Part shown: one piece after another, positions 21,749 through 62,300 of the stretch
Layout: every line of letters starts with the position of its first letter
How positions within the stretch are numbered: position 1 is the first letter of the stretch
Assembly: GCA_951406725.2 (NCBI GenBank)
Contig: OX597816.1
Location: forward strand, 129,952,001 to 130,016,000
DNA from: Octopus vulgaris
Lineage: Eukaryota
Length of the DNA stretch: 64,000 bases
Reading direction: 5' to 3'
Program-made: the position numbers and the translations under genes
The notes under the pieces: generated by a model
What the model was told of the DNA's origin: nothing
Database searches by the model: none
What the model saw: only the letters and a program-made list of their open reading frames with translations

Positions 21749-21991
21749 CTGGGCATCTAACCTGTTTAGAAATAGGAATCAATACCCCAATAAACCACCA
21801 ATGACACTGAAAATATGACAGAGAACAACAGTAAGCGGGTGAATGGTTAAGAATTAAAAACATACCATTAAAGATAATGGCATAATTCTTTAACCGTTTG
21901 CCTGATTATTGTTGTTCTCTGTCATATTTTCAGTGTTAATGGTGGTTTATTGGGGTTTTGACTCCTACTTCTAAACAGGTTAGATGCCCAG
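21749..21991. repeat. Long inverted repeat (about 108-bp arms, 26-nt spacer)
   Basis: 21749-21856 is complementary to 21883-21991. Confidence 0.9.
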
Positions 21992-22677
21992 TCTGTCCTT
22001 TTGCTTAGTCCCTCTTTGCTTCTCATTTACCTCTACTATATCTCACTTCTAGTCTTACACTAATTATTTCCTCTGGTCTTTTCTTCCCAGAATATCAACT
22101 GTAATTCCCTCCTTGACAATGATTTTCTTAAAGACATCAAAACTTACAGACATTCAATCTTAATGCAATGCAAACCACATCAGTTTTACCAGTCTCGGAG
22201 AGGTTGCAAAGGTCATAAGTATAGCTCCTTTAACTTGACCAAAAACAAAAGAAAAAGACTACACCACCCAATCCGCTTTTCCCCTCATACAGTATAAGAT
22301 ATATACCTGAAAGAGAGATTTATTTGCTATATCAAGCAGGCCACACATTCTTTCTTTGGCTCATATTTTACATTGATTGTGAGCAGCTAAACTGACTAAA
22401 ACTCAAGAAAATATTATGCACAAGATTAGAGAGTAATCTCCTCACAGACTAAGACCAACTCTCAGTATTTTAGTGACTATCCTTTAAAGGTTCTGCTAGT
22501 TTAATAAAAATCATCTTTTGTTGTATCACAGAAATAAGTTTCCAAAACCAATTCATATTGATCAGCAACTTTTCTTATAGATATTTTCATGTATGTGCGT
22601 GTGTGTATAGATATATAGATATAGGTAGATAGACAGATAGATATGTGTGTATTCATACACACACACACACACATAAT

Positions 22678-22904
22678 CATCATCATCATCATCGTTTATC
22701 ATCCGTTTTCCATGCTGGCATGGATTGGACAATTTGACTAGGATCTGGGAAGCTAGGAGGCTGCACTAGGTTCCAATCTGATTTAAAACACTGCCAGATC
22801 AGATTGGAGCCTGGTGCAGCCTCCTGGCTTCCCAGACCCCAGTCAAACTAGCCAACCCATGCCAGCATGGAAAACAGCCGTTAAACGATGACGATGATGA
22901 TGAT
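22678..22904. repeat. Foldback of two head-to-head copies of an abundant RTE-tail repeat
   Basis: Arms of about 105 bp ending in (CAT)n/(ATG)n; 15-nt spacer at 22783-22797. Confidence 0.9.
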
Positions 22905-37900: not shown

Positions 37901-40900
37901 TGCAACTAAGCATTTTGGCCAACACGCTAATGATTCTGCCAGCTCACCATAATATTATTGATAATTAGAGAGGTAATAGATAAATGGATAACCTTTTCAA
38001 TCTGTTGACATCTGGCAATTTGACGTTTCAAATCTGGAATTTCATAATTTACATTTCTGGACATGATTTGGCCTGATTCAGCTGGTTAAATATTAAAATA
38101 AAAAAGAATATAGTATCAATTATCAACATAAGCAAATAAATTGCTTATAAAATCAACAATTATTAATTTTAAGGAACTGAAAGTTTTTGTTTCTATTTTT
38201 CATTTTAAAAATTACAAAATACTGAAAAGGTTTGTTTTTAATCAAAAGATTTAAGAAAGATAAAGCATAAATTATGCAAATAAGATAATTATCATCACCT
38301 TTTAATGTTGTTTTCCAGGCCAGCATGGGTTGGACATAATGAAAACACACTACATCCCTGGGTGGGCTTGAACCACCAACCTTTCAGCTAGCAGCTCCAC
38401 ATGCTAACTGACTGCACTACGGAGCTACATTCTAACAATGATTTAGCAAACTTTCTATGAAGTCAGTACAATTTCTATAAAAATAGTATCCTGCAAGAAT
38501 CCTTGAATTTGAGACATTATTAAAAATTTTATGAAACACAAAAATATTAATAAATAGCGAGGTGTTACTGTTCAACTTACCTAAATATAAGTTATTCTTT
38601 TCATATAAATTTAAAATTTCTGACCATGCCTAAAAGCAAAATAAATAATAATAGTAACTTCTCAGATTGAGACAGGTTACACATAGAGAAAAGTATAGAC
38701 AATTGAAAGAGTCACAGTATGAAGCTGATAGCTATTTTAACATAACTGGAGGGATGAAAGGCAAAAACAAACTATTGCAATGTAACAGTAATAACAAAAA
38801 AACAAAGAAGAGAAAATCAGGCAACATATTTGCTCAACCTGCTAGAAATTGCAGTCAAATTTCCCTTAATTCATACCCTTTCTCCTTAAGGAAAGGGAAA
38901 GGCATACAAAATAATGTACTTCTATATGCCTTTAAAAAAACAGGCTGATCACTGCTGGACGCATGTTATTTAAGGTTAAATAACAAGAACAATAATATTA
39001 ACAGTGATCAAAGTATAAATGTCTTTTTTTTTTTTTAAAGGTTCAAATCCCACCAGTTTGACTTTAATGCCTTTAGAAATCAATAAAAATAAGTGTTAAT
39101 GATATATTGGATTTAGTTTCGTGGTGGGATATAAACCACAAGTTTCATTTAAAAAATCACAAAAAAATGCTCCATAAAGTGGCAGCAAGAAAATGAGATT
39201 GTCATGACTTAAATACCTTTAGTCATAAGGCTGACCTAAACAACAATAACTGCAACAACATAATAAAGTGACAACACAATAACAATAAGTGTTTCTAATA
39301 TTAGTTTCAAATTCTTGGCACAAGGCCAGCTATTTCGGGGAGGGGCTAAGTCAATTTCAACAACCACAGTGATCAACTGGTACTTATTTTATTGTCCCTA
39401 AAAGGATGAAAAGCAAGTCACTCTCAGAACATAAAGATAGACGAAATACCAAAAAGCATTTCGCCCAGCATGCTAACGATTCTGCGAGCTGGCTGCCTTT
39501 CAAGTGTTTCTAATATTGATACAAGATCACAAATTTGTAGAGAGAGAGCAACTATATAATTGACTTTTGTGGTAAAAAGTTTGCTTCCCAGCCACATTGG
39601 TTATGTGTTCAGTCCCACTGTGTGACACCAAGAGAAAGTGTCTTCTTTTAAAGCCCAAGGCCAACCAAAGCCTTGTGAGTGGATTTAGTAGATAGAAACT
39701 GAAAGAAGCCCATTGCATGCAGATGCACATGCATGCATGTGTGTGTGTGTGTTTTACTATCCCTTTGCCTTAACAGCAAGGCAAGTGGTATCTGTCATTA
39801 CCAAACTTCCATGAAAACATGTCTGGTGACAGGGAAATACTACCTTGGGAACAGGTGGGGGTTGGTAACACGAAAAACATCCCGCTGTAGAAAATCCACC
39901 TCTACAAATTCTGTCTGATCCAAACAAGTATGGAAAAGTGGATGCTAAAACAACAATGATGATGATGATGATGATCCTGAAGAAAATTAAATGTGTAAGT
40001 CAACAATGTTGGGATTTCAACACAGAACATAACTAAATACAGTATGGTACTAAGTTCACTTCACTAGCAATTCTGCTTTCTGTCATCTTTAAAACAACAC
40101 TATCAAAATGAAATTTTTTAAAAATCACCTTAGTTAATTCATTTGAATATTGTCCTAGGATGTTCTTCTTTCCTGACTCTGAGTCTTGAGACAATAATGA
40201 CATTATTTCCTTCACATGGAAGTAAGTGATTTCTTGTAATATTACAAATGTCACCAAGAAAGAAAAAAAAAAGAAATAAAGAGAAAAAACATTTAATATA
40301 TAATTGATCCTGATTAAACATTTATGAAAGAAATTAATTTCCTGGAATATTACTTCAATGAAAATTATCGTGATTATCAGGTCATTAAGAATAAAATGTC
40401 CAATTTTCTTATGCACCAAGTTGATGGTTCTTTGTTTTACAACATTGAAGAGTTACATCATCACTCTTCAAAATGCAGTTCATGGTATCTGATTATATTG
40501 TGAGTTTTCTCTTGTAAAATCAATTTTTGTGAACCCATAGATAGATTAAAAATTCATGTTGTTTATGAATCTGAGTTCCATCATAGAATCAATGCATCCC
40601 AGACAGCTTGAAACATCAATGAGGTGTTTCGTGAAGATGTGGTGAATGAGCGCACTGTACATCAATGGTTTGAGAAGTTCCAGTCTGGTGACTTCACTCT
40701 TGAAAATCATGCCCATGGTAGACCTGAGACCAAGGTGGATAATGATGAGCTGGAAACTGTAGTGGAAGTGGATACATTTCAAACTACATGTGAGTTAGCA
40801 GCAAAGTTTGATGTTTTGATTCCAACTGTATTGGACCATCCAAAACAAATCAGCTGAGTGTGGCTACTTTGAGTAAACTGTTATCTCCCAGCCATAATCT

Positions 40901-42307
40901 CAATATTTTTTGATTTTTTAAAATACTTTTATTTTTGGATAGGAAATTGTGTTTTTCTTTTCCATTTATGCAAACAGTTCAATTTAACCCGAACAGCCTG
41001 CACATTTTCACCCTAAACATTTATGAGCTTTTAGCACTCAAAAAAATAAAAATTCCAAAACAATATGAAATTTACTTACTTGAATTTTTCATAATGTCAA
41101 CAACTTCGTTAACATCTGGCAAAGTCTTAAGTGCTTGGTTAATCTTGTCTCGAACTACCAAAGCTGATGCTGGCCAGTTCTGCTGACAATGTCTTCGGTT
41201 TATCAACCAATCTACAAATAACAAAAAAATTCAATGAACTGGATGTAGAGTAATATATATATTGAAGAATGCGTGGATGATGCCTTACACAAGAATGTTA
41301 CAGCATTTCCCTTTCCACACTAGCACGGGCAAGAAAAGACTTCTTAACCCTTTAGCATTTAAACTTATCAGGTCTAACCTCTCACACCAACCCTACAATA
41401 TCATTCTAAAAATTAACAGTTATCTCATCATAATCTCAAAGCTATAAGATAATGCATGATTAATTCAAAATAATGTGAATAAATAAGCATTACTTTTGAC
41501 AGAATAAATGTGAATGCTAAAGGGTTAATTTAGTATTCTTCCAGCTGATGCCAACACTTAGTTGTTTTCAGGTAAGGTACTTTACTCCACTAGGTTCTTG
41601 CATGTCAAACTGCCAAGCTGCAAAACAGATTGTTTATGTAGAACATAAACAAACATCACTGTTACCCAAGTGATGTAAATGTAAAAACATATGGAGACAC
41701 ACATCATGCATCATTTAACATTCATTTTTCCATGCTTGCATGAATCAGATGGAATTTGTCAAGGCAGATATTTTATGGCTAGATTCCCTTTCTGTCACCA
41801 ATGTGTGTGTGTGGGTGGGGGGAGGCAACTGAAATAAGAGTTTTGACATTCATATTTACTGAATATTATTAGGTAAATAGAAATAGCTTAAAAGTGAATT
41901 CTAAAACATTTCAACCCTATTTAATCCCTAAATTCATGCCCAGCCCCTTAAAATACCTAGATGTATCAACGCTTAAGGGGTTGGATAGAGGGAACCTATG
42001 ACCTTTTCAAATACTTCCAAATTTGTGTTGATGATGTTCAGTTTGAACTTCTTTGGGTTGATATCTGTAAGAAAAGAATAAGGGCAGCGGAAGACTTCAA
42101 GAGACTATATATAATCTTCTTGTTGATGAAGTCTGACTTTAAAAGTTGCAGGGAGGATGACAAGAGTTTCATAAACATCTTTCTAAAATGAAAACTTCAT
42201 AACAATAGCACAAAGGAAGTCAGTTAAAAGGTAATTTTTCTCATACCTGTAAGTTTGTTATAATGTATGTCAATTGGAAGGTTTTCATAATTAACTTCGT
42301 GAGCCAT
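23632..42307 (-). CDS. CDK5RAP3: CDK5 regulatory subunit-associated protein 3 (C53/LZAP; UFMylation/ER-phagy adaptor), 14 coding exons, 1533 nt, about 510 aa
   Basis: Manual splice reconstruction with GT-AG introns and consistent phases. The protein starts MAHEVNYENLPIDIHYNKLTDWLINRRHC, contains RNVNYEIP, KGNCSMYEWRTG, IDWG twice and GVARGNDALTVLE, and ends IEGEVSKKYKNRVVNIIGEINVI*. These blocks match CDK5RAP3 as I recall it. Confidence 0.96.
24200..25070 (-). mobile_element. CR1/L2-group LINE fragment interrupted by a SINE (24371-24605)
   Basis: YKATIQPYIEYYCHFWAGA and LESLAHHRNVSLLYLFYKY. Confidence 0.8.
25340..25511 (-). CDS. CDK5RAP3: CDK5RAP3 coding exon 13 (YVERLEESLRQ...PKLDALRSETKELKKQ)
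   Basis: CAG acceptor, GTAAGG donor; overlaps track ORF 25241..25498. Confidence 0.95.
26747..26949 (-). CDS. CDK5RAP3: CDK5RAP3 coding exon 12 (LEFFLNQRLNEL...HLLQIKRSP)
   Basis: CAG acceptor, GTAAGG donor. Confidence 0.95.
28475..28560 (-). CDS. CDK5RAP3: CDK5RAP3 coding exon 11 (RGVARGNDALTVLEALDTRNLLMEDLME)
   Basis: TAG acceptor, GTAAAA donor. Confidence 0.95.
29429..29935. mobile_element. MITE-like element with long imperfect terminal inverted repeats
   Basis: GTCTTTGGTCAGTAAGTGTTATTTCCTATTTGCTT versus AAGCAAATAGGAAATATCAGTTGCTACCCAAGGAC, plus outer matching segments. Confidence 0.55.
30027..30102 (-). CDS. CDK5RAP3: CDK5RAP3 coding exon 10 (TNGGIDWGDDTE...)
   Basis: CAG acceptor, GTTTGT donor; GIDWGDD motif. 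Confidence 0.92.
30697..30795 (-). CDS. CDK5RAP3: CDK5RAP3 coding exon 9 (IDWGNIEES...DIDFDMSQITVE)
   Basis: TAG acceptor, GTAGGA donor; IDWG motif. Confidence 0.93.
32039..32280. repeat. Inverted repeat (about 86-bp arms) carrying decayed hammerhead cores
   Basis: 32039-32125 is complementary to 32194-32280. Confidence 0.8.
32362..32512 (+). mobile_element. tRNA/CORE-like SINE family B, representative copy; others near 14538-14700, 25115-25278, 27675-27842, 30990-31130, 31480-31600, 39565-39715, 51835-51990, 56325-56460
   Basis: Shared GTGTGGTAAGAAGCTTGC...GTGGCACCTTGGGCAAGTGTCTTCTACTATAGCC...GGATTTGGTAGAC body; often followed by (TG)n and a second conserved module. Confidence 0.85.
32812..32974 (-). 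CDS. CDK5RAP3: CDK5RAP3 coding exon 8 (LPMVKFIINKGNCSMYEWRTG)
   Basis: TAG acceptor, GTAAAT donor; conserved GN.T/S.YEWRTG. Confidence 0.95.
34079..34215 (-). CDS. CDK5RAP3: CDK5RAP3 coding exon 7 (GDKIKVELFELAKELP...FIVE)
   Basis: CAG acceptor, GTCAGT donor. Confidence 0.93.
34700..35746 (-). mobile_element. tRNA-derived SINE with 14-bp TSD, interrupted by an RTE insertion
   Basis: TSD CTACTCTTAAAATA at 34686-34699 and 35747-35760; head resembles the plus-strand copy at about 59157-59490. Confidence 0.8.
34975..35611 (+). mobile_element. RTE-clade LINE 3' fragment
   Basis: FCYLG, ARARLGWVKFRE, KLKGKVCRSCVRAAMLYRSEKW; (GGA)n tail. Confidence 0.9.
36125..36214 (-). CDS. CDK5RAP3: CDK5RAP3 coding exon 6 (DCFKKE...CKKYGIK)
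   Basis: TAG acceptor, GTAAG donor, phase 0/0. Confidence 0.94.
37266..37345. repeat. 20-bp minisatellite, 4 copies (TGCTTTTAATGTRRCACCAG)
   Basis: Tandem units inside an interspersed repeat. Confidence 0.9.
37993..38081 (-). CDS. CDK5RAP3: CDK5RAP3 coding exon 5 (ESGQIMSRNVNYEIPDLKRQIARCQQIEK)
   Basis: CAG acceptor, GT donor; conserved RNVNYEIP. Confidence 0.95.
38353..38425 (-). pseudogene. tRNA-Asn(GTT)-derived pseudogene
   Basis: GCTCCGTAGTGCAGTCAGTTAGCATG...GAAAGGTTGGTGGTTCAAGCCCACCCAGGGATG is collinear with metazoan tRNA-Asn; anticodon position reads GCT and the anticodon stem is broken. Confidence 0.75.
38581..38629 (-). CDS. CDK5RAP3: CDK5RAP3 coding exon 4 (AWSEILNLYEKNNLYL)
   Basis: TAG acceptor, GTAAGT donor. 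Confidence 0.94.
40129..40232 (-). CDS. CDK5RAP3: CDK5RAP3 coding exon 3 (ITYFHVKEIM...KNILGQYSNELTK)
   Basis: AAG acceptor, GTGATT donor; matches the conserved IHYFH...KNIFGRYS block. Confidence 0.92.
40380..40860 (+). mobile_element. Mariner 5' fragment
   Basis: ERTVHQWFEKFQSGDFTLEN..GRPETKVDNDEL HTH region; related to the 18193 element. Confidence 0.85.
41080..41211 (-). CDS. CDK5RAP3: CDK5RAP3 coding exon 2 (WLINRRHCQQNWP...IMKNS)
   Basis: TAG acceptor, GTAAGT donor, phase 1/1. Confidence 0.95.
41344..41528. mobile_element. piggyBac-like MITE; related copies near 13810-13990, 28220-28444, 30200-30425, 37540-37692
   Basis: TTAA-CCCTTTAGCATT ... AATGCTAAAGGG-TTAA. Confidence 0.8.
42247..42307 (-). 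CDS. CDK5RAP3: CDK5RAP3 coding exon 1 (MAHEVNYENLPIDIHYNKLT)
   Basis: ATG at 42307-42305 in ACACCATGG context; donor GTATGA. An acceptor TAG at 42331-42329 implies an upstream UTR exon. Confidence 0.93.
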
Positions 42308-42771
42308 GGTGTCAACTCTTCAAAAAGACTATAATTAAATAGAAAAACAAATAAATTAAAAATAAAATAAAGACAAATAAATAAAAATGAATAAAAAAAA
42401 TATTCAATTGAAAATTTCAAAACCAGCAAATTCACAAAACAGAAGGAACTAATTATGATATAACAATCCAACTCTTAGAAATTGAAAACATAATTCAGCT
42501 CTTTCATAACCAAATATTTAATTTCTTACACTGTTTAGGTATTTTAATAAATTTTGAAACTATTCAGGAATTTTGAGGTATTTACATGTTTTAGTAAAAT
42601 AACCATCATATGGTCTGGTAACAAAATATGATAAATGTTTTTATTTTTCATTCTCTTCAAAATTACTGTGGTTTGGATTTTGACTGGTCCTTCTAGCATG
42701 CTAGGTGTCCTGTCAAGGCACCTTTTATGTGTTTAAATGTACACTAATTTTATATGCATGTATATATATAA

Positions 42772-42802
<31 letters not shown>

Positions 42803-42970
42803 GTGTGTGTATATTGGCAGGGCAAGACTGCTAGGTAGTTGGCCGTATGCTAGAAATAGATCATCAACGATCAAACTACAAAGAAAGTTCTCTAGAGGAA
42901 AAATTCAGCGAACACCAGAACCAAATTTGGCGGGCAGGACAGATGAAAATTTATATAAAAAACAGAATTA

Positions 42971-43047
42971 ATTGCATACCTCGGTTTCGGCCTTTAACAA
43001 AAGAATTACTTACATAATTCAAATGTCCGTGGCTTCATCAGTGCAAT
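42971..43047 (-). ncRNA. Type I hammerhead ribozyme motif, near-intact
   Basis: Minus strand reads AUUGCA-CUGAUGA-(stem II)-GAAA-CC GA GG-UA-UGCAAU: full core, 6-bp stem I, GUA cleavage triplet. Confidence 0.8.
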
Positions 43048-44212
43048 CGTTCAGTGTAAATGCAATCTAATGATATAGTAGAAATAGCTGTGCAAACAAC
43101 CAAGCTTGCATTAAAAAGTTATTAGAAAGTTTGAGGAGTATTTGATAAAGATTCTTATCTATAATTACAGTAAACTGGTGCAAGTAAGTTATCTCCAGCT
43201 GAAAAATTACTTAATATACGACTGTGAATAGTAATAAACTCTCTCCATGAGGTTGAACAAATAGTTAATTCAAAAACAATATAATGAAATTTTCTATAGA
43301 TGGACATTACATCCAAATGCCAGAAACAGGGTCTAGATTATACTTGAATATGAAATAGTTCAATTGACATCAGTTGAACAAATAGCTCCTAAATATCCTA
43401 CTCCAAGCATATTTGCAAATCACAATAATGTTATCAATGGGTCAATAATATCACCAGCATCTCCTACAGAGCTGCCAGATGATCATGTGATCCCCTGTAG
43501 TAATGTTTCTAACAGGTTAAGAATACCAATTTCTCCAATTACCATTGTTGCAACTATTCAATCACTAACACCTCCCACACTACCAATACTAAATCCCATT
43601 TACACTCACAGCATTTTATTAAAAATAAAATCCCCATATAAGAGTTGTAGGATCACAAAGGGAATTCAGAAGCCATAAAGATAATGACTAAGGCAAATTA
43701 CATTTTGTGGTTAGAATAATATTTAGATAATAGTATTCTCTTATTAATATATAAATGTATCTCTGAGGTCAACTTTGCTTTTCATCCTTTTGGGGGTCAA
43801 TAAATTAAGTACCAGTCATGTACTGGGGTTGATCTAATTGACTGGCCCCCTCCCCCAAAATTTCAAGCCTTGTGCCTAGAGTAGAAAAGAATATATAGCA
43901 CACTGTTATGCTGACATGGTGTTGTTTGTATGCTGCATGCTTTCCTGTGGTGATACCAGTTCAATGTCAGATACAGTCGTATGGCCATAAGACTGTGTCT
44001 GATAATGTTGGAGAATTACAATACTCAGTTAAAACAGTTGTTTGAAGTTTCAAATTTACTGTTGTGAATTTAAATAATGACTGAGGCACATTAACTGATC
44101 AAGTTCTTTCATATGGTCGACTAATATATACTAACAGCTACATCACAATCTATAACATTTTTTAGAATAAAATAAATTAGAAATGCCAGAGATAAGTTAA
44201 TGTTATCTTCAA

Positions 44213-45220
44213 TAAGGGTGGGGCAAAATGAATAATCTTTGATTTCTTGTCACTTTCTTCCTACTTGTTTAAAACCATTACATTGAAAATATTGCATCGT
44301 CATTTTGTACAGTTGCATTATCGTTTTGGGGAGTACAAATTGGTCAGCAAAGTTGTTGCTGAAGTTGTCAGGTGGCAGGTACTTTTTCCCCAAGAAATTT
44401 TTCAATTTTGACCCAATTTTGTAGTTAGAATAATGTTTAGATAATAAACATAAATAAATGTATCTCTGAGGTCGACTTTGCCTTTCATCCTTTTGGGGGT
44501 CAATAAATTAAGTACCAGTCATGTACTGGGGTCGATCTAATCGACTGGCCCCCTCCCCCAAAATTTCCCCAAGAAATTCAGTTAGCTAATAAAATATCTG
44601 GATAATTTTTTATGTTTAACAATCGATATTCTTTTCTCTGTTGGATTCCAACTCAATCTATTTCCTACACTAATAACTAATTTGATAATTTTCAATTTAG
44701 AAAAAAATATGTCTGGAGTGGGGTAAAATGAGTAATGACTAATTCAAATAATTCCTTGCCTCAGTTGCGTGATGTATTTACATATCTGGAAGAGAGCCAT
44801 TCCAGAAGACCATAAAGAAGCTATAGAGAATATTTTATGCTGAGTTTTTAGATTTATTCGCGTATCATTTATTAATTATCATGTGTCATTTTCCATGACC
44901 CTCATTTTTTTTTTTTTGCATTTCTGATCTTTATGATGCATAAGGATGGATAGTAATCTGTATGAGCCTTTTCTCAAATGTAATTCTGGAGAATTGAAGA
45001 GACAAATTTACCTTATTTCGTCTTATTTTGCTCCACCTAAATGTCTTTTGTATACTCAAAGAGAATGAGGATAATTTTCTGAAATGTTTTTAATGCATTT
45101 AGAGAAGGTCACTTTCTTACCCGATATGGTTTTTGTAAGGTAGTGAACAATTGTAAAAAAAAACTTTTTTCCTCAAAGTAAAAAATACAGTAAATATTAC
45201 TCATTGTGCCCCACATCCAT
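44213..45220. mobile_element. MITE-like DNA element with GGGGCAAAATGAATAAT-type inverted ends
   Basis: GTGGGGCAAAATGAATAAT (about 44218) versus ATTACTCATTGTGCCCCAC (about 45196); internal copies of the motif. Confidence 0.5.
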
Positions 45221-45248
45221 AATCATTTTATTAAAAACAGTAGCTTAC

Positions 45249-45297
45249 CAGTGTTTAAGTGACTGGGCTACCGTTTCGTATATTATCATCGGGTAGA
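45249..45297 (-). other. CDK5RAP3: Putative non-coding 5' UTR exon of CDK5RAP3 (upper boundary uncertain)
   Basis: Strong donor CTG|GTAAGC at 45248 in non-repeat, CpG-containing sequence; the ATG exon carries an acceptor. Confidence 0.45.
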
Positions 45298-46256
45298 CTG
45301 CAGGGTTTTTTTTCTTTATTAATTTTTTATTTCTTAACACAACCCCCAAATATTAGCACGTTAATGTTGTAAGATACGGAAATAGAATATAGAATCGAAA
45401 ATAGATCATAGTGGATCGGAAATTCTCTCACATATGTGCCAAAGTTTGATTTCTAAATAATTCATTTGCATCATTTAAACAATGGTAACTTTTAAATAAA
45501 ATTAAAAACCTGGCACCTAGAGAGTTAAACTGGGTGTTGAGCAGAAGATGCAGAAGAGATCTAAGACGAGAATGGAATTATAATAGAAAATAAACAACAA
45601 TCATACATTCGGTAAATTCAACAACAAAAAAGAATATTTAGAACGTTAACTTTAACAACGCAAAATACTATAGTTGTAATAGTTGATAATAATTAAAATT
45701 AATATCCTACAAACTTCGTGTCATTTACCAATATAAATATAATTGGTTTCTTCTGCTTATGCTTTCATTGTTCAAAATAATCACAATCTGATATAATCAA
45801 CCAACATATGGGATATTTTAGAAATAAAAATAACAGCATTCATCAAGTTAAAATCGTCTGATATACCTTACTTTGCCTATTTGTTGAAATAATTTCAATC
45901 TCTTGTCTAAACAAAGTTTATAACAACTATATTACATTGTTTTAAAATAAATTGACACGTTGTAACTGAAGAGTAAACAATTTATAATCATGACGATTTT
46001 ATGCCGGGTTTCTTTCAACAAAATAATGCTGTTTTATCCGATATGCTTATTTTAAAAACCGTTAGTAAATTATAACAAAAGAAACAGACCTTATACAGCA
46101 AGAATAGATGTGAAATTTCAGTAAATTTTATGTAGTGTATCCTAACATCAACAATACATCGCCATCAGGACCGCCGATTGCTAAGCAGACTGAATTATTT
46201 CCCTTAACACAACATGAATTATCTTTCCTTGATTCTCCTTATCTCTCAGTCTTCAA
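45298..46256. promoter_or_regulatory. Putative bidirectional promoter region, CDK5RAP3 / ILKAP
   Basis: Divergent genes; about 1 kb with no recognisable TE; CGGAAA (ETS-like) motifs near 45377 and 45417. TSSs not located. Confidence 0.55.
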
Positions 46257-46287
46257 ATGGATCTTTTCGGAGATTTACCGGAGCCAG
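46257..46287 (+). CDS. ILKAP: ILKAP coding exon 1 ([10 protein letters not shown])
   Basis: ATG at 46257, donor GTGATA. A polypyrimidine tract plus CAG ending at 46249 suggests an upstream UTR exon. Confidence 0.93.
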
Positions 46288-49200
46288 GTGATATGAATTT
46301 TTATTGAACTGTTAAAATATCTATTATATTCGTTCTTTCTCGTGTTATGAAGTATAAATACTTTACGTTACTTAATATATATGTAATTTACCTAATGAAA
46401 TTTGATTTACATCTTAGTTTAGAAATGAATCAATGAAGAAGCCTCTACGTGGTTATTTGACCTATTAGAAATTGCAGCACAATCTCCTTCAGATCACATT
46501 TATTTATCTTTTTAAAAAACGACAGCGTGTCATGTAAAACACTATATCGAGAAAAGTTGAGATTGTCACACCTGGAACGCAATTCATAATATATCTGTGC
46601 TATCTGTAGCGACCTGGGACGAAACAATTTTGTCGTAATAGTAAAGATTTCCTTTACGAAAAAGGAAATAATTGATTCAACTCAGATACAGACTACATTA
46701 TACCTTCACAAGATATCATAATACGCAGAAAGTTTTTTTTTTTTCCTATAGCTATATAATTGCTTACCAAACTCTAGTGAAGAACAAACACGATGTTGAC
46801 GAAGTAAGCGGATCCAATGAAAAGCTAAACAAAAAATAACCAAATGTAAATCATTCATATTATCCAAGATTCCTTTTTAAAATATTTTAATGACATAGCC
46901 ATGACCATAAAAACATAAAAATCGTATCTAATGAAGGCAGAACCACAGCGCAATTATTCAATGTACATAAACTAAGATCAACTTATTAGCAAACAAACAA
47001 CATGACTATATATATGTGTGTGTGTGTGTGTGTGTATATAAGTAGTGCATTTTGTTTGTTTTTCTCTTTTTTTTTCTTTCTTTTGAACTTTCGTTTTAAG
47101 ATAGTCTTTATGTTACCAACATTGTATAATATACAATAGATGTTTACTCTAAGTGTTTACTCTTTGTGCTGCATAAATGATAAGCACAAAAGATAGAAAT
47201 ATAGTTTGCTTTTACTTATTTATTCACAAGCACGTTCTCAACATATCGTATATCAGTAATAAAATTAGTCAAAGAGAAATAACAGCAACAAGTGAAAAAT
47301 AACAACTTTAAAAAAAAATAGATTGAATATTTCAAAGGATAGCTCTAATTCCATTGACTGAAGCTTATTATAAATGGAGAGACGGCGATGCTGAGCACTG
47401 GGGATCGATGCGGTCAACTTTCTTCCACCCTTTAACATTGCTGGCTTTGTGCCAAAATTAGAAAGAATTAGTGTTGGTTTCGAATTTAAGCACAAGGACA
47501 GCAATTTCAGGGGTGGGAGTAAGTCGATTATATCGACCCCAGTGGTCAGCTGGTACTTATTTTATCGACTTCGAAAGGATGAAAGGCAAAGTTGAATTCG
47601 GCAGACGAATTTGAAAAACATGTCTGGCCAATACTACCTTGCTTGTAAATATTTTGCCAGCTTACCACCTTACTAAAAATAATTATTATTGTTATCAAGA
47701 CGGTGAGCTGGCAGAACAGTTAGAATTCCGGGCAAAAATGCTTAGTGGCATTTCACCCGTCCGTATTATACGTTCTGAGTTCAAATTCCGTCAAGGTCGA
47801 CTAGGCGGCGAACTGACGGAATCGTTAACGCACCGAGTAAAATGCTTGGCGGCATTTCGTCTGTCTTTACGTTCTGAGTTCGAATTTCGCCGTGGCCGAC
47901 ATTTGCTTTCATCCTTTCGGGGTCAATAAAATAAGTACCAGTAGAGCTTTGGGGTCGATTATTTACATTTGACGGATATTTGTCTTCATCTTGTTTATTG
48001 TTAACACAACGTTTCGGCTGATATACCATCCAGCCTTCATCAGGTGTCTTAGGAAAATTTCGAACATGGGTTTTCGTTCCTAAGGTATTTTTCGATGTTG
48101 TTGCTGTTGTTATTATTATTATTATTATTATGGTCACTACCTGGAATCGAACTCGGAATCTTGGGGTTAAGAGCGCAGACTACTAACCCCAAAATTCCGA
48201 GTTCGATTCCGTCAATGGGTCACAACAAAAAAGTTTGACAAACGCAGGCTTAGAGCAATTGTCCACAAAGGTAGTATGTGGTCTCTGTTCAAAATTTCAA
48301 AAGGCTGCAGTGTGAAATGTATAAATATTCAGTTATATATATCTTTCAATAGGGAGATGAAACTGGGAAAATAAGTTTTGTTGATAAAATTGGCCTATTA
48401 AGAGGACAAAACTTTTAAAAGCCTGCGATCCATGGGAAAATTCATTCAAATAAAAAGACTCTTTGGTAGTAAGAAAAGTTGGGGACCATTGGCAGAGAGA
48501 CTTCCTGGCAAAGAGAAATGCCAAATGGCCGAGTTTTCTGTTCTGACACAAATATATACAAATATGTATGGGATAAGAGGACTGACCCTTCAGTTTTGCA
48601 TGGAGTTAGAGCTAAAAGAGGGTGGTCGAGGAGTCCTCTTATATTGGTGGGGACTTTATATGTCGTTTGTTGTTACAGAATGTTACTATATAAATATATT
48701 TCTGGTTTCTCACCATAAAGAGTATCATTATGGTGTATCATCAGACCCTAATATATATATATATATATATATATTTTATATGTATATATATATATATATT
48801 TAGCAGAAGTAACAGAGTAACTGAAGGCCCGAGAGTTTCGTGTGTTGGCACTTATCAAACTAGTTTGATAAGTGCCAAAGCACGACACTCTCGGACCTTG
48901 AGTCACTCTGTAACTTCTGCTAAATATTAATAAAGATATACATATACTCATATTTTGAGTTCTATTTGTCTATTTGTTCGACTAAAAACCCTTCAAAGTG
49001 GTGCTCCAGCATAGCTGTAATAAAATGACTGAAGCAAATAAAAGAATATATATTGAATTGTTAATCCCTACAAATTTTTTTCTCTCTTCGTTTTTTTTTT
49101 TTTACCCTCTCAGTCCTTTCTGTCAAAAAGCATAAGCTCAAAACATCAAAGACGTTTCCATTCTTCCCAAGCGTTAAATTAATACACCTACTTCTTGTTC

Positions 49201-52200
49201 CTACACCTGTCTTCGTTTTTTGTTTACTGTAAATTTGAACTCTATATATATATATCAAGTTGGTGCAAGGGTAATGACCGATTTTAAGGTCTCTATTAAA
49301 ATGAAAAGGTGCATGAATAAGACAATATTTATTCATTAACATAATTTCTATCGCTTTCTAGAACTTCATTCCATCTGTCAACAAGCTTATAAATGCCACG
49401 CTTGTAAAATTGTTTAGGTTTACATACGAAATATGAATCCAACTCATTTTCATCCTCTTCTCTTGATGTCAACTTTAGACCATTCAAATGGTTCTGTAGT
49501 CCCTGAAACAAGTGATAATCAGAAGGAGCAATGTCTGGAGAATATGGAAGATGAAAATATTTCCTAACCAAGCTCTTCCAAGAGATCTTAGGTCAGTTGA
49601 GCTGTGTGAGGACGAGCATTATCATGGTGGAAGATGACACCTTTTATGTTGACTATGCAGGGTCACTTTCTGTTCAAAGCAGCTTTCAAATGATAAAGTT
49701 GATCACAGTAAAGATTAGCAGTTATTCTTTGATTGTTGTCTAACAGTTCATAATGGACAATTCCTTCAATATCCCACCATACACTCAACATGATCTTCCT
49801 TGGATGAAATCCTCTTGGTTGTTGAACAGGTCTTCCTCGACTGATCGACGATCAGCTAACATTAGAGTAAAATACCCACTTCTCATCACCTGTAACAAGC
49901 TTTCATAAAAAGTTCCTTAAGGTGTCATAAAAGCAATGACTGACAACAAACAACACGCTGTTGCAGATTCTCTGGAGATAGCTCGTGCACGACTCATTTT
50001 CCAGCCACTGAAACCTTTCCGATCCTTTTCAGTTGGTGTAGAACAGTTGTTTGGGCTATGTTAAACTGTTCTGCAATTTCTCTACAAGTAGCAGCTGGAT
50101 TTTCTGTGACAACATTTTTCAACTTTTCAGAATCAAATTGTTTTTAATTATCTTCTTTTGGTTCGTCTTTCAAACTCAAATCCCCCTCTTCTGAAGCAAA
50201 AAAAAACACCTCCTGCAACTTCTTTCACTCATTACATCATCCCCATAAACTCTCTGAAGAAACTTTGCTGCTGTGCTTGCATTGACACCTTTATGAAACT
50301 CATGTTTAATGTGATCTTTAGATGGGTCAAACATGGGTGCAAATATAGCAGAAGATTGTGGCAATTACAATTAGAATCTGAAAGAAAAATCTATAAATTG
50401 CTCAATGTAACATTCTGAAAATATTGCAAGAGGCACTATTTAAAAAAATAATATTAAAAACTATTTTCTGACAAATCGGCCATTACCTTTGCACCAACCT
50501 GATATATATATAAAAGATAGTGGTACAACAATGCACCAATATTTACTGGAAATAGCAGTCAATGATATATCTAGAGAGAGAGAGAGAGAGAAAATTAATG
50601 TAGTTGTTGGTTATGGTTGATCAGGCCATAACAAGAAGTGTGGTGGAATAGTAGGAAGGTTAACAGAGAAAGTTGTGTTGGTATGTGGAAGATGTGCAAG
50701 AGCCATAAAGACTACAGATTGAGAATTAAATGCATTGTCTTCATTACAGTATTTAAATATTTTATATTCTTGTTGTAATTGTAGCAAAAAAGAAAGCTAG
50801 GGTTTTTTTTTTTTTCTTTTTTCAATTTTATAAATAATATCTGAGTCATTTTGATGTAGATCTAGTTCTGGGTGGCAAGACTTCCTTTTATACCCCATCC
50901 CCCAAAACACCCCTTTTTTTATTTATTTTTTTTCTACACAAACCCCCGTTTTCGGCTATGGAGAATACAAATCTGCAAAAAAAAATTGGCAAAAATCGAC
51001 ATTTCGAAATTACACCCCACCTATCCACCACCACCACCCCTAAATTCTTTATTTTTAACTTTTTTCAGATTTTTTTTTTTTTTTTTTCAAATTTGTGGAA
51101 AAATACAGAGATTATGATTCTGAAAAAGTTTTCTCATCATCATTGTTCGACTGTGATCAAGACAATGGAATTTACTATGTTACGCCAGACTTCACGGCCC
51201 ATCATAGCATTACGGAGGTCCTGTTGCTGGATGCCTGTATCCCTGGAGATTACATCAGGGTAGGAGAGTGTGCATCCTCTGGTATCACGAGCAGATGGCT
51301 TCCAGAGGAGAAGAGTAGAAATTACCTCGTTTTCAGCTCTACAACAATGTCCAGCAAACTGGACTCTTCTACCTTTTACAAGAGATGATACAGGTGGTAG
51401 TTTCCCATATATTTGTACTTTGGTTGGATGATGCTTCCACGAGAGATTTCTACTTAAGGTTAGGGTTAGGGTTATAGAAAAAAGTGGAAAATGAAGAAAT
51501 GGGGGGGGGTTCAAAATTCTGATTTTTGGCAATTTTCTGGAATTTTCGTATCTGAAAACGGTTTTTGGCAAAAAAAAATGGTGGAGAGACGGGAGGAAGA
51601 CTTTCCACATGTAGTCCCAGGTTAGACCTGATTGAAGACATTGCACTCATCTATTATCTTTTACTTGTTTCTGTCATTAGACTGTGGCCATGCTGGGGGC
51701 ACCACCTTGAAGAATTTTTAGGCAAATGAAGTGATCCCAGTATCCTTTCTTTAAAGCCTGGTACTTATTCTATCGGCCTCTTTTGCCTAACTGATAAGTT
51801 ACGGGGATATAAACACACCAACACCTGTTGTCATATGATAGGCCGCTTTCAGTTTTCATCTACCAAATCTATACAGTAGGCTTTGGTCGTCCCGGGGCTA
51901 TAATAGAAGACACTTACCCTAGGTGCCATGCAATGGAACTGAACCTGGAACTATGTGGTTACGAAGCAAGCTTCTTACTACACAGCTGGTCTTTTTTTTT
52001 TTTTAGAGGGCAATTTAGCTGCTTTTTGTAGCAGGTTTGGAGACATGACATGTCAGTCAGTAAAAAATTAAAAAAACACTTGTTGCTGAACATTTGGCAA
52101 GTAACATACCCTCTTAGTTATCGTATTTCTGCTGTGAACTGCCAATCACCAGCATGGAGAATGAATTTGCTGGTTGGGCTACGATAATCCTTCATACTGC

Positions 52201-55200
52201 CCCACCACTAAGTGATTGTAAGTTTGTTTTTATTTTTTATTTCTTCCCTCACCCTGGTTTGGACTGAAGGAAGGAGTTTTTATCATGTCCCGAAAGCGCA
52301 GTGGAATCGACTCACTCAGTGGTCTTCTTGAATAACTTGTCAGTTGTAACAAAAACATGAACCGAGAAAGAATTCCAGACAATTGATGTTCAGAAGGGAG
52401 GATGGAGCATAGTACACAAACTCAGTGGGGAGGAACATAATATGGGTGACGAGAAAAGAGACATGTGAACCAAAAATGCCTGGGTAGAGGTAGCATTAAG
52501 TGCAGCAGTCACTATAGTGTTAGAAAAGGCAAAGGACGTCTATAGGTCAGAGGCTGATGTTGTCTGGCTACTTGATAACAATCAGTCTGGCCATCTTTTT
52601 TGGATGCAGTCTAGGATGTCTGGATGTAAAGCAGCAGGACCATCCTAGATATGGATGCAGTATTCTATTGCTGTTCTCACTGTGCTCCATACAGTGTTTG
52701 TAGTTGCTAAGAGCTGATATTTCCTGGTCCTAAACAGGAAGTCTTGTCTTGGTTATGTTGAGTGTGTGTATGTTTGTCAGTAAAGATCTTCAGTGAAAGT
52801 AAGGCCTAGCATGTTCTTGTTGCATGTTGTTCATGTATGGAGTTGATGGGATACTATATTATTTTCATGACATGTGTAGTGATTGTATCTTTGTGCATTT
52901 GAAAGAGACACGTCTAACATAACACTGTTGGAAGAGAGCTATCTGTACAAATTGATCTGGTTGGTCTACTGAATAAGCCAATTGCAATTATTATCCTATT
53001 TGAAAAACTTGATCTCATTCATTATCTATTGTCTTTGTGTTGTGTTTGTTCAATTTGTTATTAATTTGAATCACTGCCAGGTCACCAGTCCAACTCAGTG
53101 GAAAATAAAGAATGCAACAATGAAGAGAAACAAACTAAAACAACAAATGGTGCAGCGACAAAAAGGAAAGCCACACACTCATCTGCAGATGAAGTGTCTG
53201 CAACTGCAGCTAAACAAAGACAATCAAGTATGTCATTGTAATAATAATAATAATAATAATTTATTAGATAGGTGCAATGCTACAAATTTAGCAGGAGGCA
53301 TACTGTTAACTGATTAAGTTTGATTCCAATATTTTACTGATATTTTATTTAAAAATTAAAGATTAGAAAGCAAAGTTGATCTTGGTTGGATTTGAACTCT
53401 CAACATAAAGGATCTTAACTAGATACTATAAGGCATTTTGAACAGCATTCTACTGATTCTGTCACTTTGTAATTAATGATATTGCCCAATATTACTGTAT
53501 TTCAATGTATATTATATATACTCTAAGCTACTTAACAATGCTGCATTCTCAGAGATCATGTATTTTAATTTTATGTTCATTTTGAACAGCCTAACTCTTA
53601 CCTTTCATTCTTTTAACTCATTTTTGCAATTCCTTACCCAGTTAATATGTCCTGTACATTAGTATTCTCATAAATGGACTATGTGAGTACTATGAAAGTA
53701 ACAGACTATTGACTCATAGAAATTGAGAATTCAAATCCACTACTAATATTTCAATAAACAGCACATGTCATTCTGCTGGTTTCAATAATCCTAGTTTTTA
53801 GTAATAGTTATAAAATTACCTGAACATATTCTTACAATAGACTGGCATGCTACTTAAAGTAAGATTTATCCTTTCATGCACTCTTTATTGAAGAAACACG
53901 ATTGAACTTAAAAGATGCCCTGGAAATATGTATATTTTAAAATACCCTCCTGCCTCCTTCTGGCTATTCCCTACTAAAAACCTCATAATTCTTCTTTGTC
54001 TTCTGTTGATATTTTCCAGTTTTAATATTCTTCAGTTTAGATTTGCTAAAAATTTATTGTTTTCAATAATTTCCTGAAAATCATATATATAGTCAATATA
54101 ACCTAACAAATACATGTTCTTTAAAATTTCAGCTTTTAAGAAAACTTGCTGTCTTTTGAAGTTAAAGATTGTAAACTATATACTAATTATAGTGTTTACT
54201 ACTGGATTACCTGAGAGTTAGGAAATGCTATTTCACTCTCCTATTAAAATTATATCACTCTTATTCTCTAGTTGCATTGCTAACATTCCAGATTCCTTCT
54301 AAGTCTAACACGTAAGGGATTTTTCTTGCAGTGAACATCAGCTTAGATTGAGTGTCTTCTGTTATAGCCTTGTGTTGACCAAGGCTTGATGAGTGAAATT
54401 TAGTAAACAGAAATTGTCAAATACAGGAAGTCTTCCTGTATTTGGGTAGAAAAAGAGGAACACTCTCTTAGTACTACCTTCTGTGGTTCTTCTATGCCTC
54501 TATCAGAGTACACTCTGTTGCAGATATTTAGACTATATGTCTGAGCATATACTTTTCCCACCAGTCTTGGTGGCATTGAAAAGGCATGTGAGCACTACCA
54601 TTGCTCCTCTGACTAAACAATTAGAATTCTTATTAGGTGTCTCTCAACTCCTTCTCTGCTTTGTAGCCCCAGATCAATTTTGATTAAACAAACTGCTTAA
54701 CTACCTTCTTTACAGGAATAAGTACTAGGAAAAGTAAATAATATATTAGTTACAGTTGGTCATCCATTCCATCCATCCATCTGTTTTATTTATCACTTTT
54801 CATCTTTGTCATTTCAGTTAATTATTATTTAAAAGGTTATGTAAGAGAAATGAAAGGAGAAAGAGATGAAATGCAAGATGCACATATTGTACTTGACGGT
54901 TTTGCTACTGAGTTTGATGATCTACATCCATCTGTGTAAGTTTAATTCTCTCTTCTTAAAATTATTGAAATATACATGTAAAATAATTGGATAGCAGATG
55001 ATACAACCAAAATATTTTCTGAACATTACATCTTTATATTTGATATATAAACATATTTAACTACTGTAATCTGTCTTTTAGTCAAATAGGATTTACATAA
55101 ATATCAATGCAAATAATCCAAATATTCTATAACATCTAAGAAAAGAAATTCAAAATGTGGAAAAAACACCTGAATTAGAGGATCTTAAAATTAACTCAGC

Positions 55201-55593
55201 AAACACCAAGGTTCTAGTAAGCAAGAAATAAGACAAGACTCTACCTCCTTCAGGTAACTGGCCCTGCTCAATATGTAAGAAAGGTGTAGGTGGAAATTTC
55301 ATTTGGTGTACCCAGTGCAAGCTATGGACACACAAGAGGTGCAGTGGAATAGTAGGAAGGTTAACAGAGAGAGTCATGTTTGTGTGTGGAAGATATACAA
55401 GAATCATAGACTACAGATACATGGGAAACTGATTTCTTCAAATGTCCCAGAGGCTCTCTGAAAGTAACAGATAATTTCTGCTACCTAGGTGGCCTAATTA
55501 ATAGAGGATGAGATGTACCAAAAATGTAATTGCTAGAATAAGAATAGGATGGAGAAAGTTCAGAGAGCTTTTTATTTCTGTTGGCAAACAAAG

Positions 55594-55664
<71 letters not shown>

Positions 55665-56115
55665 AGTGAAAGGAAGGGTGTATGATGCATGTATATGAAT
55701 AGCAATGCTACTTGGTAGTGAGATGTGGGCGTGAATGCAGAGGACATGTGAAAACTAGAGTGGAATGAAGCTGGTATGCTCCACTGGATGTGCAATGTCG
55801 GTGTACATATGTGATAGAGTGCAATCGTATGGAGATTGTTTTGATTTCATCATGTAATGTGTATGGATGATGACAGTTGCATAAAGAAGTGCTTATCACA
55901 TAAAGTAGTTGGATGTTGTGGAAGAGGGAGACCCAGTAAGATATGATGAAATATAGAGGGCCATTCTCAAAATCCTATGTCTTACAAAAGAGGTGACAAA
56001 GAACTGAGATATATGACACATTGCTGTTCTCAGAAGACCCACCCACCCACATAAAAAGCACTGGCGATGATGCCATGCAAAAAGCACTGGTGCTGGTGCC
56101 ACATAAAAAGCACTG

Positions 56116-59300: not shown

Positions 59301-62300
59301 GTGATGTCACTGGTGCCAAGCTAGATTGGCTTTACCAATATATTTGGATAACATCACTGGCATGGAGAGGGGAGGTTGGTATGCATGGACAACTGCTGGT
59401 TTTCTATAAACAGTCTTGCCCAGACTTGTGCCTAGGAAAGGAATTTTCTAGGTACAATCCATTCATGACTGAAGGGGGGTCTTTACCCTATGTTTTCCAA
59501 TAAACTCTGCTGAGTTATCCTTATTTTACTTTTTCCTTCTGAATCTTTCAAATGATAAAGGTAATTTATGGATACCCTGTATATTTTGTGGTTTTCCTTC
59601 TAAAATCAAGCTTAATTTTTTTTATTTATATTCTTGTTTATTTTGTATTCTCTAGTAAACCAGCATGGAAAGATGGCTCCACTGCAACAGTTGTATTAGC
59701 AATAAATGATACCTTGTACATATCCAACTTAGGAGACAGCAAGGTAAATTATTTTCAAACTCTCATCATCCTTTCATTTACATGACATTATTTTCAACCT
59801 CAGAAAATAGTTTTATTATAATTGAGGAAAATTAACCATTGTTAATTTAATTACAACAAAATGTTAAGTAAATTTATTTTGCTTTTACATTATACAATAC
59901 AATGTTGAATTCATTTTCTTTTACTTAATATTCTTGTGGGCCCTTTAAAAATATCATGAACTTGTATTTATATCTTACTTTCAGGCAATATTATGTCGAT
60001 ACAAAGAAAATACTCAACAGTATGTAGCAGTACCACTAACTACTGAACACCACCCTACTGTTTATGAAGAAAGAATGCGAATTCAAAAGGCTGGAGGCCA
60101 TGTTAAGTAATATATCAGATTTAATCTGAAATATTTATTGGCAAACCCTCTTTTTATTACTTTTTTATTTTGTTAATGTTTCTTTTTATACTTTAAAGAG
60201 ATGGTCGTGTGATGGGTACTCTAGAGATCTCTCGCTCCCTAGGAGATGGACAATATAAGAATCATGGTGTCATCTGTGTACCTGATGTTAGGAAATGCCA
60301 GCTAACTGACAATGATCGGTAAAAATACTCCATTTTCTTTTCTAAATTGCATTGAAAAATATTAAATAGGAGAGATAATTAGAATTATATATTAGTAAGT
60401 ATTTTATAACTAATACAGTTCTATATTTGGGAGATGAGGAATTATTTACATTTGACGGATATTTGTCCTCATCTTGTTTGTTGTGAACATGTTTCAGCTG
60501 ATATACTCTCCAGCCTTCATTAGGTGTCTTGGAGGTATTTCAAACCTGGGTTCTTGTTCCTCAGGTATTTTTTGATGTTATTCTTTTCTACTCTAGGCAC
60601 AAGGCCTGAATTTTTTTTTGGGGGGGGCAATCAATTAGATAGACTCCAGTATGCAACTGGTACTTAATTTATCGACCCTGAAAGGATGAAAGATAATGTT
60701 CACCTTGGCAGAGATTGAACTCAGAACATAAAGACAGACGAAACACTGGTAAGCATTTCGCCCAGCGTGCTAACATTTCAGCCAGCTCACCGCCTTTCAC
60801 TCTCTGAAATCAAGCTCAATTCCAGGCAGTGACCTGAATAATAATGACGACGACGATGATGATGATGATGTCATCGTTGTCATCGAAAAATACCTTAGGA
60901 ATGAGAACCAAGATTCAAAATTTCCCCAAGACACCTGACGAAGGCTGGAGAGTATATCAGCTGAAACATGTTAACAACAAACAAAATGAGGACAAATATC
61001 CGTCAAATGTAAATAATGTATTTTATAACTGTATATTTTTTTGGTTATTTTGTACAAGGTCACTTGACTGAAATAAATTAAATTGCCTAATGATATAATA
61101 AAATTATACATAGAAGAATTAGCAGCCAGAACTCCTATAAATTTTAAGACATACACATTGAATAACGTAGTCCTAGATACACTTTGTGTGAAAAAAATAT
61201 TAAGAACAGGCTTGTAAGGTTGAAACACTAATAGTTCAGTTCAATCAGGGCTGACCTGAGATTAAACATCAATAAATATATATATATGTTATTTTGGTTT
61301 ATAAAGATTTAAATTCAACCATTTGCTAATTTTTTTTCCATTTCATCTTCAACGTTAATGAGAAAATCGGTTTTACTTTTAGCAGAAGCAAGATATTACT
61401 AATTTCAATATCTTATCAGGGGAAAAAAAAATCCAAAACAACATGGAATAATACTGGACACTTGCTGTTAAACTTAATGGAATGAATCTGTTAAAAGTAT
61501 ACATCAAGATTTTATTTCAATATATAGTTAGTAGTCATTTTATGAAAAACACTGACCTGTTTATAAAATAATGAATCATATAAGAATGCAGTGAAATTCA
61601 GAAATTTATAATGCTGTAAGGGGGAGAGACTAATGTTTCGAGACACTTTTTGTCTGAGAAAAAACATTTTTTTTTCTTCTTAGTCTATCCAAAAACTTAA
61701 GATTTACTCTTAATTTCAATTTAAAGATAGATATCAAAGAATAGAAATTTAAACTTTATTCCAAGTTCATCTAAATATTCCTTAAACAGAGAGATATTGA
61801 ATGGGTTTACTAACTTACCTTTATTTAATCATTCTTTTTTCTGACTTAGCTATTTCATCACTTCAGACACTCTTAAAGAAATTACATTTCTATGTCACAT
61901 ATCTTGTTTTATCATTTATATGAATCCACTTCAAAAAAATTCATTACCCAGAATATCCATAATGACTTTAAATCTCTTGTCTTACAGATTTTTTATCATT
62001 GCTTGTGATGGACTTTGGAAATCTTTAACTCCTGAAGAATGTATCCAGTTTGTTTGCAATGTTTTAGAGGTAAATTTCAGGCTATTCCATTTCTATGAAA
62101 CTAGTTTATATTTCTTTTACCTCAATATTTTGTTAAATGAATCTCTGAAAACTGAGATCTGTAACCCAAATCTAACACTTAGGCACGATTTTCCTTGCCT
62201 CACAGATCACACTTCAGGAAAGACATTTATATACTTGAATAAATATAGTTACATCCATATCCTTGACAAACAAATATTTAGTCTTGGAAAGAAGATCTAA

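Follow-up and report, generated by a model that had tools for sequence, protein, structure and literature searches.

A palindromic hammerhead-bearing repeat in the first intron of an octopus ILKAP-like gene, probably a head-to-head stub of a Penelope-like element

The window analysed here is a 64-kb stretch of Octopus vulgaris DNA. Protein mapping placed the first coding exon of an ILKAP-like PP2C gene at 46257 and the start of its second exon near 53079, so that intron 1 runs from 46288 to about 53079 and contains the palindrome described below. The identity of the gene was supported by an exon at 60197 to 60319, which matched the Pfam PP2C family and shared 98% identity with an ILKAP-like protein of Octopus vulgaris. 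A CDK5RAP3-like gene (42280, minus strand) lies head to head with the ILKAP-like gene (46257, plus strand), with about 4 kb between the first coding bases. The features at the locus are as follows.

46257 to 46287, plus strand: coding exon 1 of the ILKAP-like PP2C gene, by protein mapping
48751 to 48799, no strand: (TA)n microsatellite forming the left flank, 25 copies of AT by TRF
48796 to 48861, minus strand: inverted arm of 66 nt, arm offsets 66 to 1, no tail; outer boundary with the TA run uncertain to within a few bases
48816 to 48861, minus strand: left-arm hammerhead with UUGAUAA and GAAA intact, one broken pair in each of helices II and III, and a GUU triplet
48862 to 48927, plus strand: direct arm of 66 nt, by arm comparison
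48862 to 48907, plus strand: right-arm hammerhead, read as UUGAUAA, GUGC-CAAA-GCAC, GACA, CUC-9 nt-GAG, UC
48862 to 48864 with 48905 to 48907, plus strand: right-arm helix I, 3 bp
48865 to 48871, plus strand: right-arm core U3 to A9, by motif reading
48872 to 48883, plus strand: right-arm helix II, by motif reading
48884 to 48887, plus strand: right-arm GACA, GAAA in the family, by motif reading and contig comparison
48887 to 48903, plus strand: right-arm helix III, by motif reading
48904, plus strand: right-arm C17, by motif reading
48928 to 48967, plus strand: one-sided family tail with AATAAA at 48929 to 48934, by contig comparison
48968 to 49048, plus strand: a different high-copy repeat, 5'-truncated, abutting the tail, by contig comparison

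The original prediction of a loopless 132-bp palindrome was borne out by an inverted-repeat search, which placed the centre between 48861 and 48862 with 0 nt between the arms, and by an arm-against-arm comparison, in which 59 of 66 positions were identical. The mismatches fall at arm offsets 18, 19, 25, 34, 39, 43 and 51, and a looser match extends to 74 of 85 positions through the TA-rich flanks. In a scan of the window this was the sole loopless palindrome that was not simple sequence. Three other inverted repeats were recorded in the window: one of 118 nt at 21733 to 22007 (86% complementarity across a spacer of 39 nt; the scan placed no hammerhead there), one of 107 nt at 22676 to 22904 (87% complementary, 15-nt spacer, with ATC/GAT repeats on both sides) and one of 27 nt at 48143 to 48210 (96% complementary, 14-nt spacer), the last containing what we take to be a tRNA-like box sequence.

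As RNA, the palindrome folded at −96.6 kcal/mol (z-score −16.8), and none of 200 shuffles was equal or better. A hairpin in ILKAP pre-mRNA had also been predicted. Its location in an intron was upheld, and its length of 66 bp was corrected: on the plus strand 60 of the 66 positions pair (one of them as G-U), six of the seven arm differences break the pairing, and the longest run without a break is 17 bp. Six changes private to this copy were counted over 132 sites (4.5%, range 1.7 to 9.9%), or about three per arm. When set against the clock implied in PMC13282606, 0.09 per 25 million years, this level of private change gives the copy a rough age of 13 million years (5 to 28).

The arm-by-arm readings of the hammerhead, right arm on the plus strand and left arm on the minus strand, were found to be correct. 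The ILKAP-like gene is on the plus strand, and the right-arm ribozyme is therefore on the transcribed strand. On the minus strand, the left arm retains 3-bp helices II and III. The arms and their majority sequence were compared with a type I hammerhead descriptor of the U3-A8 kind, in which the core tested was U3-U4-G5-A6-N7-A8-A9, G12-A13-A14-A15.1 and U16.1-H17. The majority arm, with helices I, II and III of 3, 4 and 4 bp, and the left arm both passed, the right arm failed (A14C), and none of 200,000 shuffles passed. The Rfam hammerhead models gave no match at the gathering threshold in the 64-kb window, and no hammerhead was among the 22 Rfam matches to E 10 over 40000 to 56000, where a C3-G8 motif at 48043 was missed likewise.

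That motif bears on the claim that the palindrome is unrelated in sequence to other hammerheads nearby. A descriptor scan found only one other in the window, and the arms gave no blastn match there. The second hammerhead is a minimal C3-G8 type with its core at 48043 on the minus strand, within 47968 to 48130, and has a 5-bp helix I, a 6-bp helix II and GAAAC/GUU. It belongs to a different family, has AAT repeats ahead of it and AATAAA behind it, and likely represents another Penelope-like stub.

Folding calculations did not favour an active ribozyme in single arms. With a helix I of 3 bp, the ribozyme fold was calculated at −4.6 kcal/mol versus −9.7 kcal/mol for the preferred fold, the majority arm included, and it became the lowest-energy fold only once helix I reached 10 bp. 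In the transcript of the locus, the three ribozyme helices had predicted probabilities below 1e-12 on either strand. Because the hairpin sequesters both ribozymes, both are predicted by this modelling to be inactive and the copy at 48796 to 48927 to be inert. Activation of dimers through loop III was considered and found no support apart from the helix III strands themselves, as self-pairing of the 9-nt loop was no better than that of shuffled loops (685 of 2000 as good).

The major data for the family were contigs from four public runs, compared with 48797 to 49230 at 80% likeness. These were four of the 24 runs listed, three DNA runs under three organism labels and one guessed to be RNA; none of the runs listed is on record as RNA, and contig depth is not a measure of copy number. 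In the three DNA runs the palindrome was found to belong to a many-copy family, with 124 to 125 contigs in each at 48886. This position was A in 95%, 96% and 97% of the depth, from which it was deduced that GAAA, as predicted for the consensus, is the family state and that the right-arm GACA is a lesion. The predicted 4-bp stem III was also recovered, since 48823 is C on the plus strand (G at arm offset 39) in 82 to 89% and completes helix III. The GUC of the consensus was supported only indirectly, in that 48904 was not among the 40 differences listed, beyond which lay 112 further rows. Right-arm positions 3, 8 and 17 were likewise without a listed difference, which indirectly points to U3-A8 and GUC as the family majority. 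GUU may be a minority state; 48904 and the left-arm U17 (48819) were both absent among the differences listed. The original prediction had named the lack of GAAA or GUC, or unconserved stems II and III, as evidence against itself, and the contigs instead contain GAAA and the helix III base in the family.

Among the same 40 differences, the helices carried only a one-sided change, C11.1 to U, seen in 20 to 26% with the pair kept as G-U; the remainder of the changes bearing on the fold were in the loops, and no two-sided compensation was found. In loop II, position 48879 is split about evenly between C and T, and loop III varies over 48892 to 48897. Of 24 DNA contig pieces listed, which were the longest kept and so give no frequency, 19 cross the palindrome centre with 15 to 26 other letters and 1 to 10 gaps. 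These differences indicate near-complete palindromes at other loci. Eleven of the 19 extend into the tail past 48940, and the orthologous locus was absent among the contig pieces listed. A-to-G differences numbered 19 in run X9, the guessed RNA run, which pools many loci, versus 17 to 18 in the DNA runs, and the count therefore carries no information on editing or expression.

Pattern scans of viral and of metagenome contigs gave 0 matches each. Two prokaryote matches of 22 to 23 nt, in SAR116 contigs, were rejected as chance since no similarity extended beyond the match. The family was not found by text search in one supplement of PMC8557442 (a file other than the hammerhead file S2), in the supplement of PMC13282606, which does not contain the repeat library, or in four supplement files of PMC9699675. 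A search of the literature listed no publication on octopus hammerheads, and the family may already be catalogued in Repbase or Dfam. Neither an RT nor a GIY-YIG frame was found at the locus or, in the contigs viewed over 48797 to 49230, in linkage with the family, and arm plus tail contains no ATG.

The element had been predicted to end at 48927, but the family sequence continues to 48967. Behind 48967, about 22 further shared nucleotides followed by TA repeats were observed in 143, 108 and 143 contigs. From this shared sequence a full unit of about 128 nt was deduced, with a tail of about 60 nt and with the left arm ending near offset 66; the left ends of other copies are visible only to 48797, the start of the compared stretch. 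At the present locus the tail breaks off at 48967 against the next repeat, which we take to be SINE-like. The right insertion junction is thereby lost and a target-site duplication is not readable. The tail meets this repeat at a common GTC (48965 to 48970), which suggests a microhomology deletion; judged from the sequence, this deletion may have removed the end of the tail together with the TA flank on the right and the 5' portion of the next repeat. A third high-copy repeat adjoins at 49053 to 49230 and shows many A-to-G differences versus its own family, in the DNA runs included.

The inner ends of the arms proved particularly variable. Of 27 junction rows listed, six outside the element, two duplicates, one of unclear direction and one continuation from arm to tail were dropped, leaving 17 head-to-head junctions; a further 115 rows lay beyond this listing. 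Their inner ends are unequal, for example offsets 3/36, 4/44, 1/54, 3/79 and 15/19. In 11 of these 17, one arm ends at offsets 1 to 5, that is, within five bases of the helix I start, and the other arm starts at 36 to 79. Where the intervening letters were given, in four of the junctions listed, they numbered 10 or fewer; as they are unseen in the others, part of the clustering at offsets 1 to 5 may reflect the edge of the reference. Some junctions are without a whole arm (offsets 1/78, 3/79 and 9/77). Among the loose ends listed, 17 contigs of run X19 continue before 48861 into AT-rich, flank-like sequence with an agreement of 0.5; a conserved CAGAGT upstream of the core was not seen in this listing, beyond which lay 1637 further rows. 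In one junction, from 48858 to 48905, the overlap consists of the three helix I bases and CAGAGT is created before the core on the minus strand by fold-back. This junction was seen in one contig of run X5 (depth 184) and was absent from the other runs.

The proposed truncation of stem I at the inversion is unproven, as a common start point is shared by many copies. Candidates for what sets this 5' boundary are an RNA start, a splice site or a founder copy. The palindrome centre fits the initiator consensus YYANWYY; such sites occur at 10 per kb in intron 1, and an initiator at the boundary is therefore only a lead. For comparison, the start site of Drosophila Penelope is reported (PMC2377424) to lie 46 bp plus a 75-bp intron upstream. 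A start of the copies at the cleavage site was considered and found no support. Depth rises at about 48898 versus a predicted cut site between 48904 and 48905, and with the step off the cut site nothing points to copying of cleaved RNA.

These features were compared with published Penelope-like elements (PLEs), which make up 6.83% of O. vulgaris according to the PMC13282606 supplement. In Arkhipova et al. 2013 (PMC3846280), inverted pLTRs are arranged head to head, their junctions are palindromic and one of the pLTRs carries a 31-bp tail; solo pLTRs are reported too, and the inversions are attributed, as a proposal, to self-priming. Craig et al. 2021 (PMC8557442) describe an inverted 5'-truncated copy, a tail and a (TA)n bias. 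In what these sources describe, PLE insertions resemble the octopus copies in their head-to-head arrangement, palindromic junction, one-sided extension, AT-rich or (TA)n site and ORF-less solo pLTRs. They differ in that the octopus unit has about 130 nt per arm plus tail and no ORF at the locus or linked to it, in that the junction here has no spacer, and in the tail, about 60 nt versus 30 to 40 published. By analogy with the bias in PMC8557442, the (TA)n left flank is likely the insertion target. Penelope features present are thus a hammerhead in a putative terminal repeat, an inverted 5'-truncated copy at the 5' end (at this locus and in the 17 junctions listed) and an AT-rich or microsatellite target.

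The ribozyme gave a mixed comparison. According to Cervera and De la Pena 2014 (PMC4209133), U3-A8 cores occur in Schistosoma PLEs and hammerheads occur in opposite-strand pairs. The metazoan PLE hammerheads described there share with the octopus motif the type I architecture, U3-A8, a short helix I, a location mostly outside full elements and the opposite-strand pairing. In contrast, helix II is 4 bp without the unpaired 5' base in octopus versus 7 to 8 bp with it, helix III is 4 bp with a 9-nt loop versus absent or tiny and palindromic, and the octopus copies abut with a helix I of 3 bp, whereas the published pairs are 100 to 700 bp apart. Further likeness was seen with PAc, the Poseidon element of Anolis, as described by Frangieh et al. 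2024 (PMC11167929). The PLE protein cuts and extends both strands of AT-rich DNA in vitro, which would give paired cDNAs; two internal RNA start sites bound the tail; and hammerhead cleavage is unnecessary. In PAc as in the octopus family, 3' ends fall at two points beyond the hammerhead and the target is AT-rich, but the PAc ORF starts inside the hammerhead versus no ATG in the octopus unit.

Taken together, the locus holds one degraded copy of an octopus repeat present in many copies, likely a hammerhead-bearing pLTR stub of a Penelope-like element inserted as a head-to-head pair, with ribozymes predicted to be inactive. The Penelope pLTR alternative of the original prediction fits the inverted pairs, the one-sided tail and the (TA)n flank. 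As no RT or endonuclease gene is linked to the family, we infer its Penelope membership, and by this analogy it is likely a non-autonomous or truncated member. Points that count against a Penelope origin are this lack of a linked RT or GIY-YIG frame and of an ATG in arm plus tail, the long tail and unreadable target-site duplication, helices II and III unlike the minimal PLE type, the disfavoured ribozyme fold with a 3-bp helix I, and a depth step away from the cut site.

A distinctly doubtful alternative is that the palindrome moves whole, as a foldback or MITE-like element or from a palindromic master, and that the unequal junctions arose by later central deletions. Long palindromes do undergo asymmetric central deletion, near-complete palindromes with nearly the same centre were seen at many other loci (19 of the 24 pieces listed), and TA is the target type of Tc1/mariner-type elements, which would also fit the TA flanks. 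A fixed MITE-like foldback, as the original prediction had offered, does not fit because the inner arm ends vary between copies: fixed symmetric ends and a constant interior would be expected, and instead the family extends about 60 nt past one arm only and the centres vary. Neither the junctions lacking a whole arm nor a hammerhead core kept at 95 to 97%, which a DNA element does not need, is readily accommodated. A fragment of a non-LTR retrozyme (a tandem element with a canonical type I hammerhead) inverted by repair is quite improbable. PMC7229834 and a 2026 preprint (10.64898/2026.07.22.740005) describe elements that are likewise non-coding, many-copy and equipped with a type I hammerhead, the 4-bp helix II and stable helix III are nearer to canonical type I than to the minimal PLE form (PMC4209133, PMC7229834), and the preprint argues that retrozymes derive from PLEs. 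Retrozymes, however, form head-to-tail arrays of units of about 300 bp, whereas among the copies listed the octopus family is dispersed or head to head and ends in TA repeats; no tandem unit was found at the locus and no head-to-tail units among the junction rows listed, for units within 48797 to 49230.

Retention of the copy by selection as a regulatory hairpin acting on editing, splicing or expression in ILKAP intron 1 is very improbable. The intron is transcribed, the fold reaches about −97 kcal/mol, and A-to-I editing in animals acts mainly on young repeats (PMC9989829); the breaks in plus-strand pairing are nevertheless what neutral decay would leave, and private change amounts to about 4.5% per site. 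That the palindrome is a hairpin gene for a microRNA or siRNA with the miR-96 family seed is hardly credible. The Rfam mir-96 model matched 48836 to 48887 on the minus strand (32.4 bits, E 0.0018) with a 9-base run in common, but this is half of the 65-bit gathering score, the hairpin has no loop, the sequence is a many-copy repeat, and the motif was absent from four supplement files of an octopus microRNA paper. The 9-base run is the start of the mature mir-96 consensus of Rfam and lies across helix II; the match is below threshold and chance is likely. Other Rfam hairpin models gave matches below threshold only.

To our knowledge, no enzyme has been assigned to the octopus family, and for a Penelope-like insertion we infer the priming, the joining and an enzyme acting in trans by analogy with the published elements. 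A Penelope-type RT/endonuclease supplied in trans would nick both strands of the (TA)n tract, and a short RNA would be reverse transcribed from two internal sites, the tailed arm arising from a start near offset 128 and the arm without a tail from one near offset 66. The cDNAs would then be joined head to head at their 3' ends, or alternatively one cDNA would fold back and prime itself. Where both cDNAs reached the common 5' boundary, namely the first helix I base, a loopless palindrome would result. About three private substitutions per arm would have been acquired later, and the copy would now be carried in ILKAP pre-mRNA as a passive imperfect hairpin.

A more specific version, unlikely on present evidence, is that the family is a stand-alone non-autonomous Penelope parasite of about 128 nt whose RNA starts exactly at helix I. 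A single copy, with its 3-bp helix I, could not fold, and head-to-head insertion would act as a ribozyme switch. Joining at the 5' boundary would give a loopless hairpin that silences both ribozymes, as at this locus, and fold-back through the AGU/ACU match of helix I would lengthen that helix and so complete a monomeric U3-A8 ribozyme. This suggestion derives from the single X5 contig (depth 184) and from the calculation that the ribozyme becomes the lowest-energy fold at a 10-bp helix I. If it is true, the octopus junctions would be a direct record of twin-primed versus self-primed Penelope insertion.

As it stands, the finding adds an octopus family to the known anatomy of Penelope ends and is of little significance beyond that. 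Penelope stubs of this kind would seed imperfect double-stranded hairpins in introns, in a group of animals with heavy A-to-I editing. With its variable junctions and a 5' boundary that seems fixed, a short family of many copies could be used to separate the models of inversion from an assembly alone.
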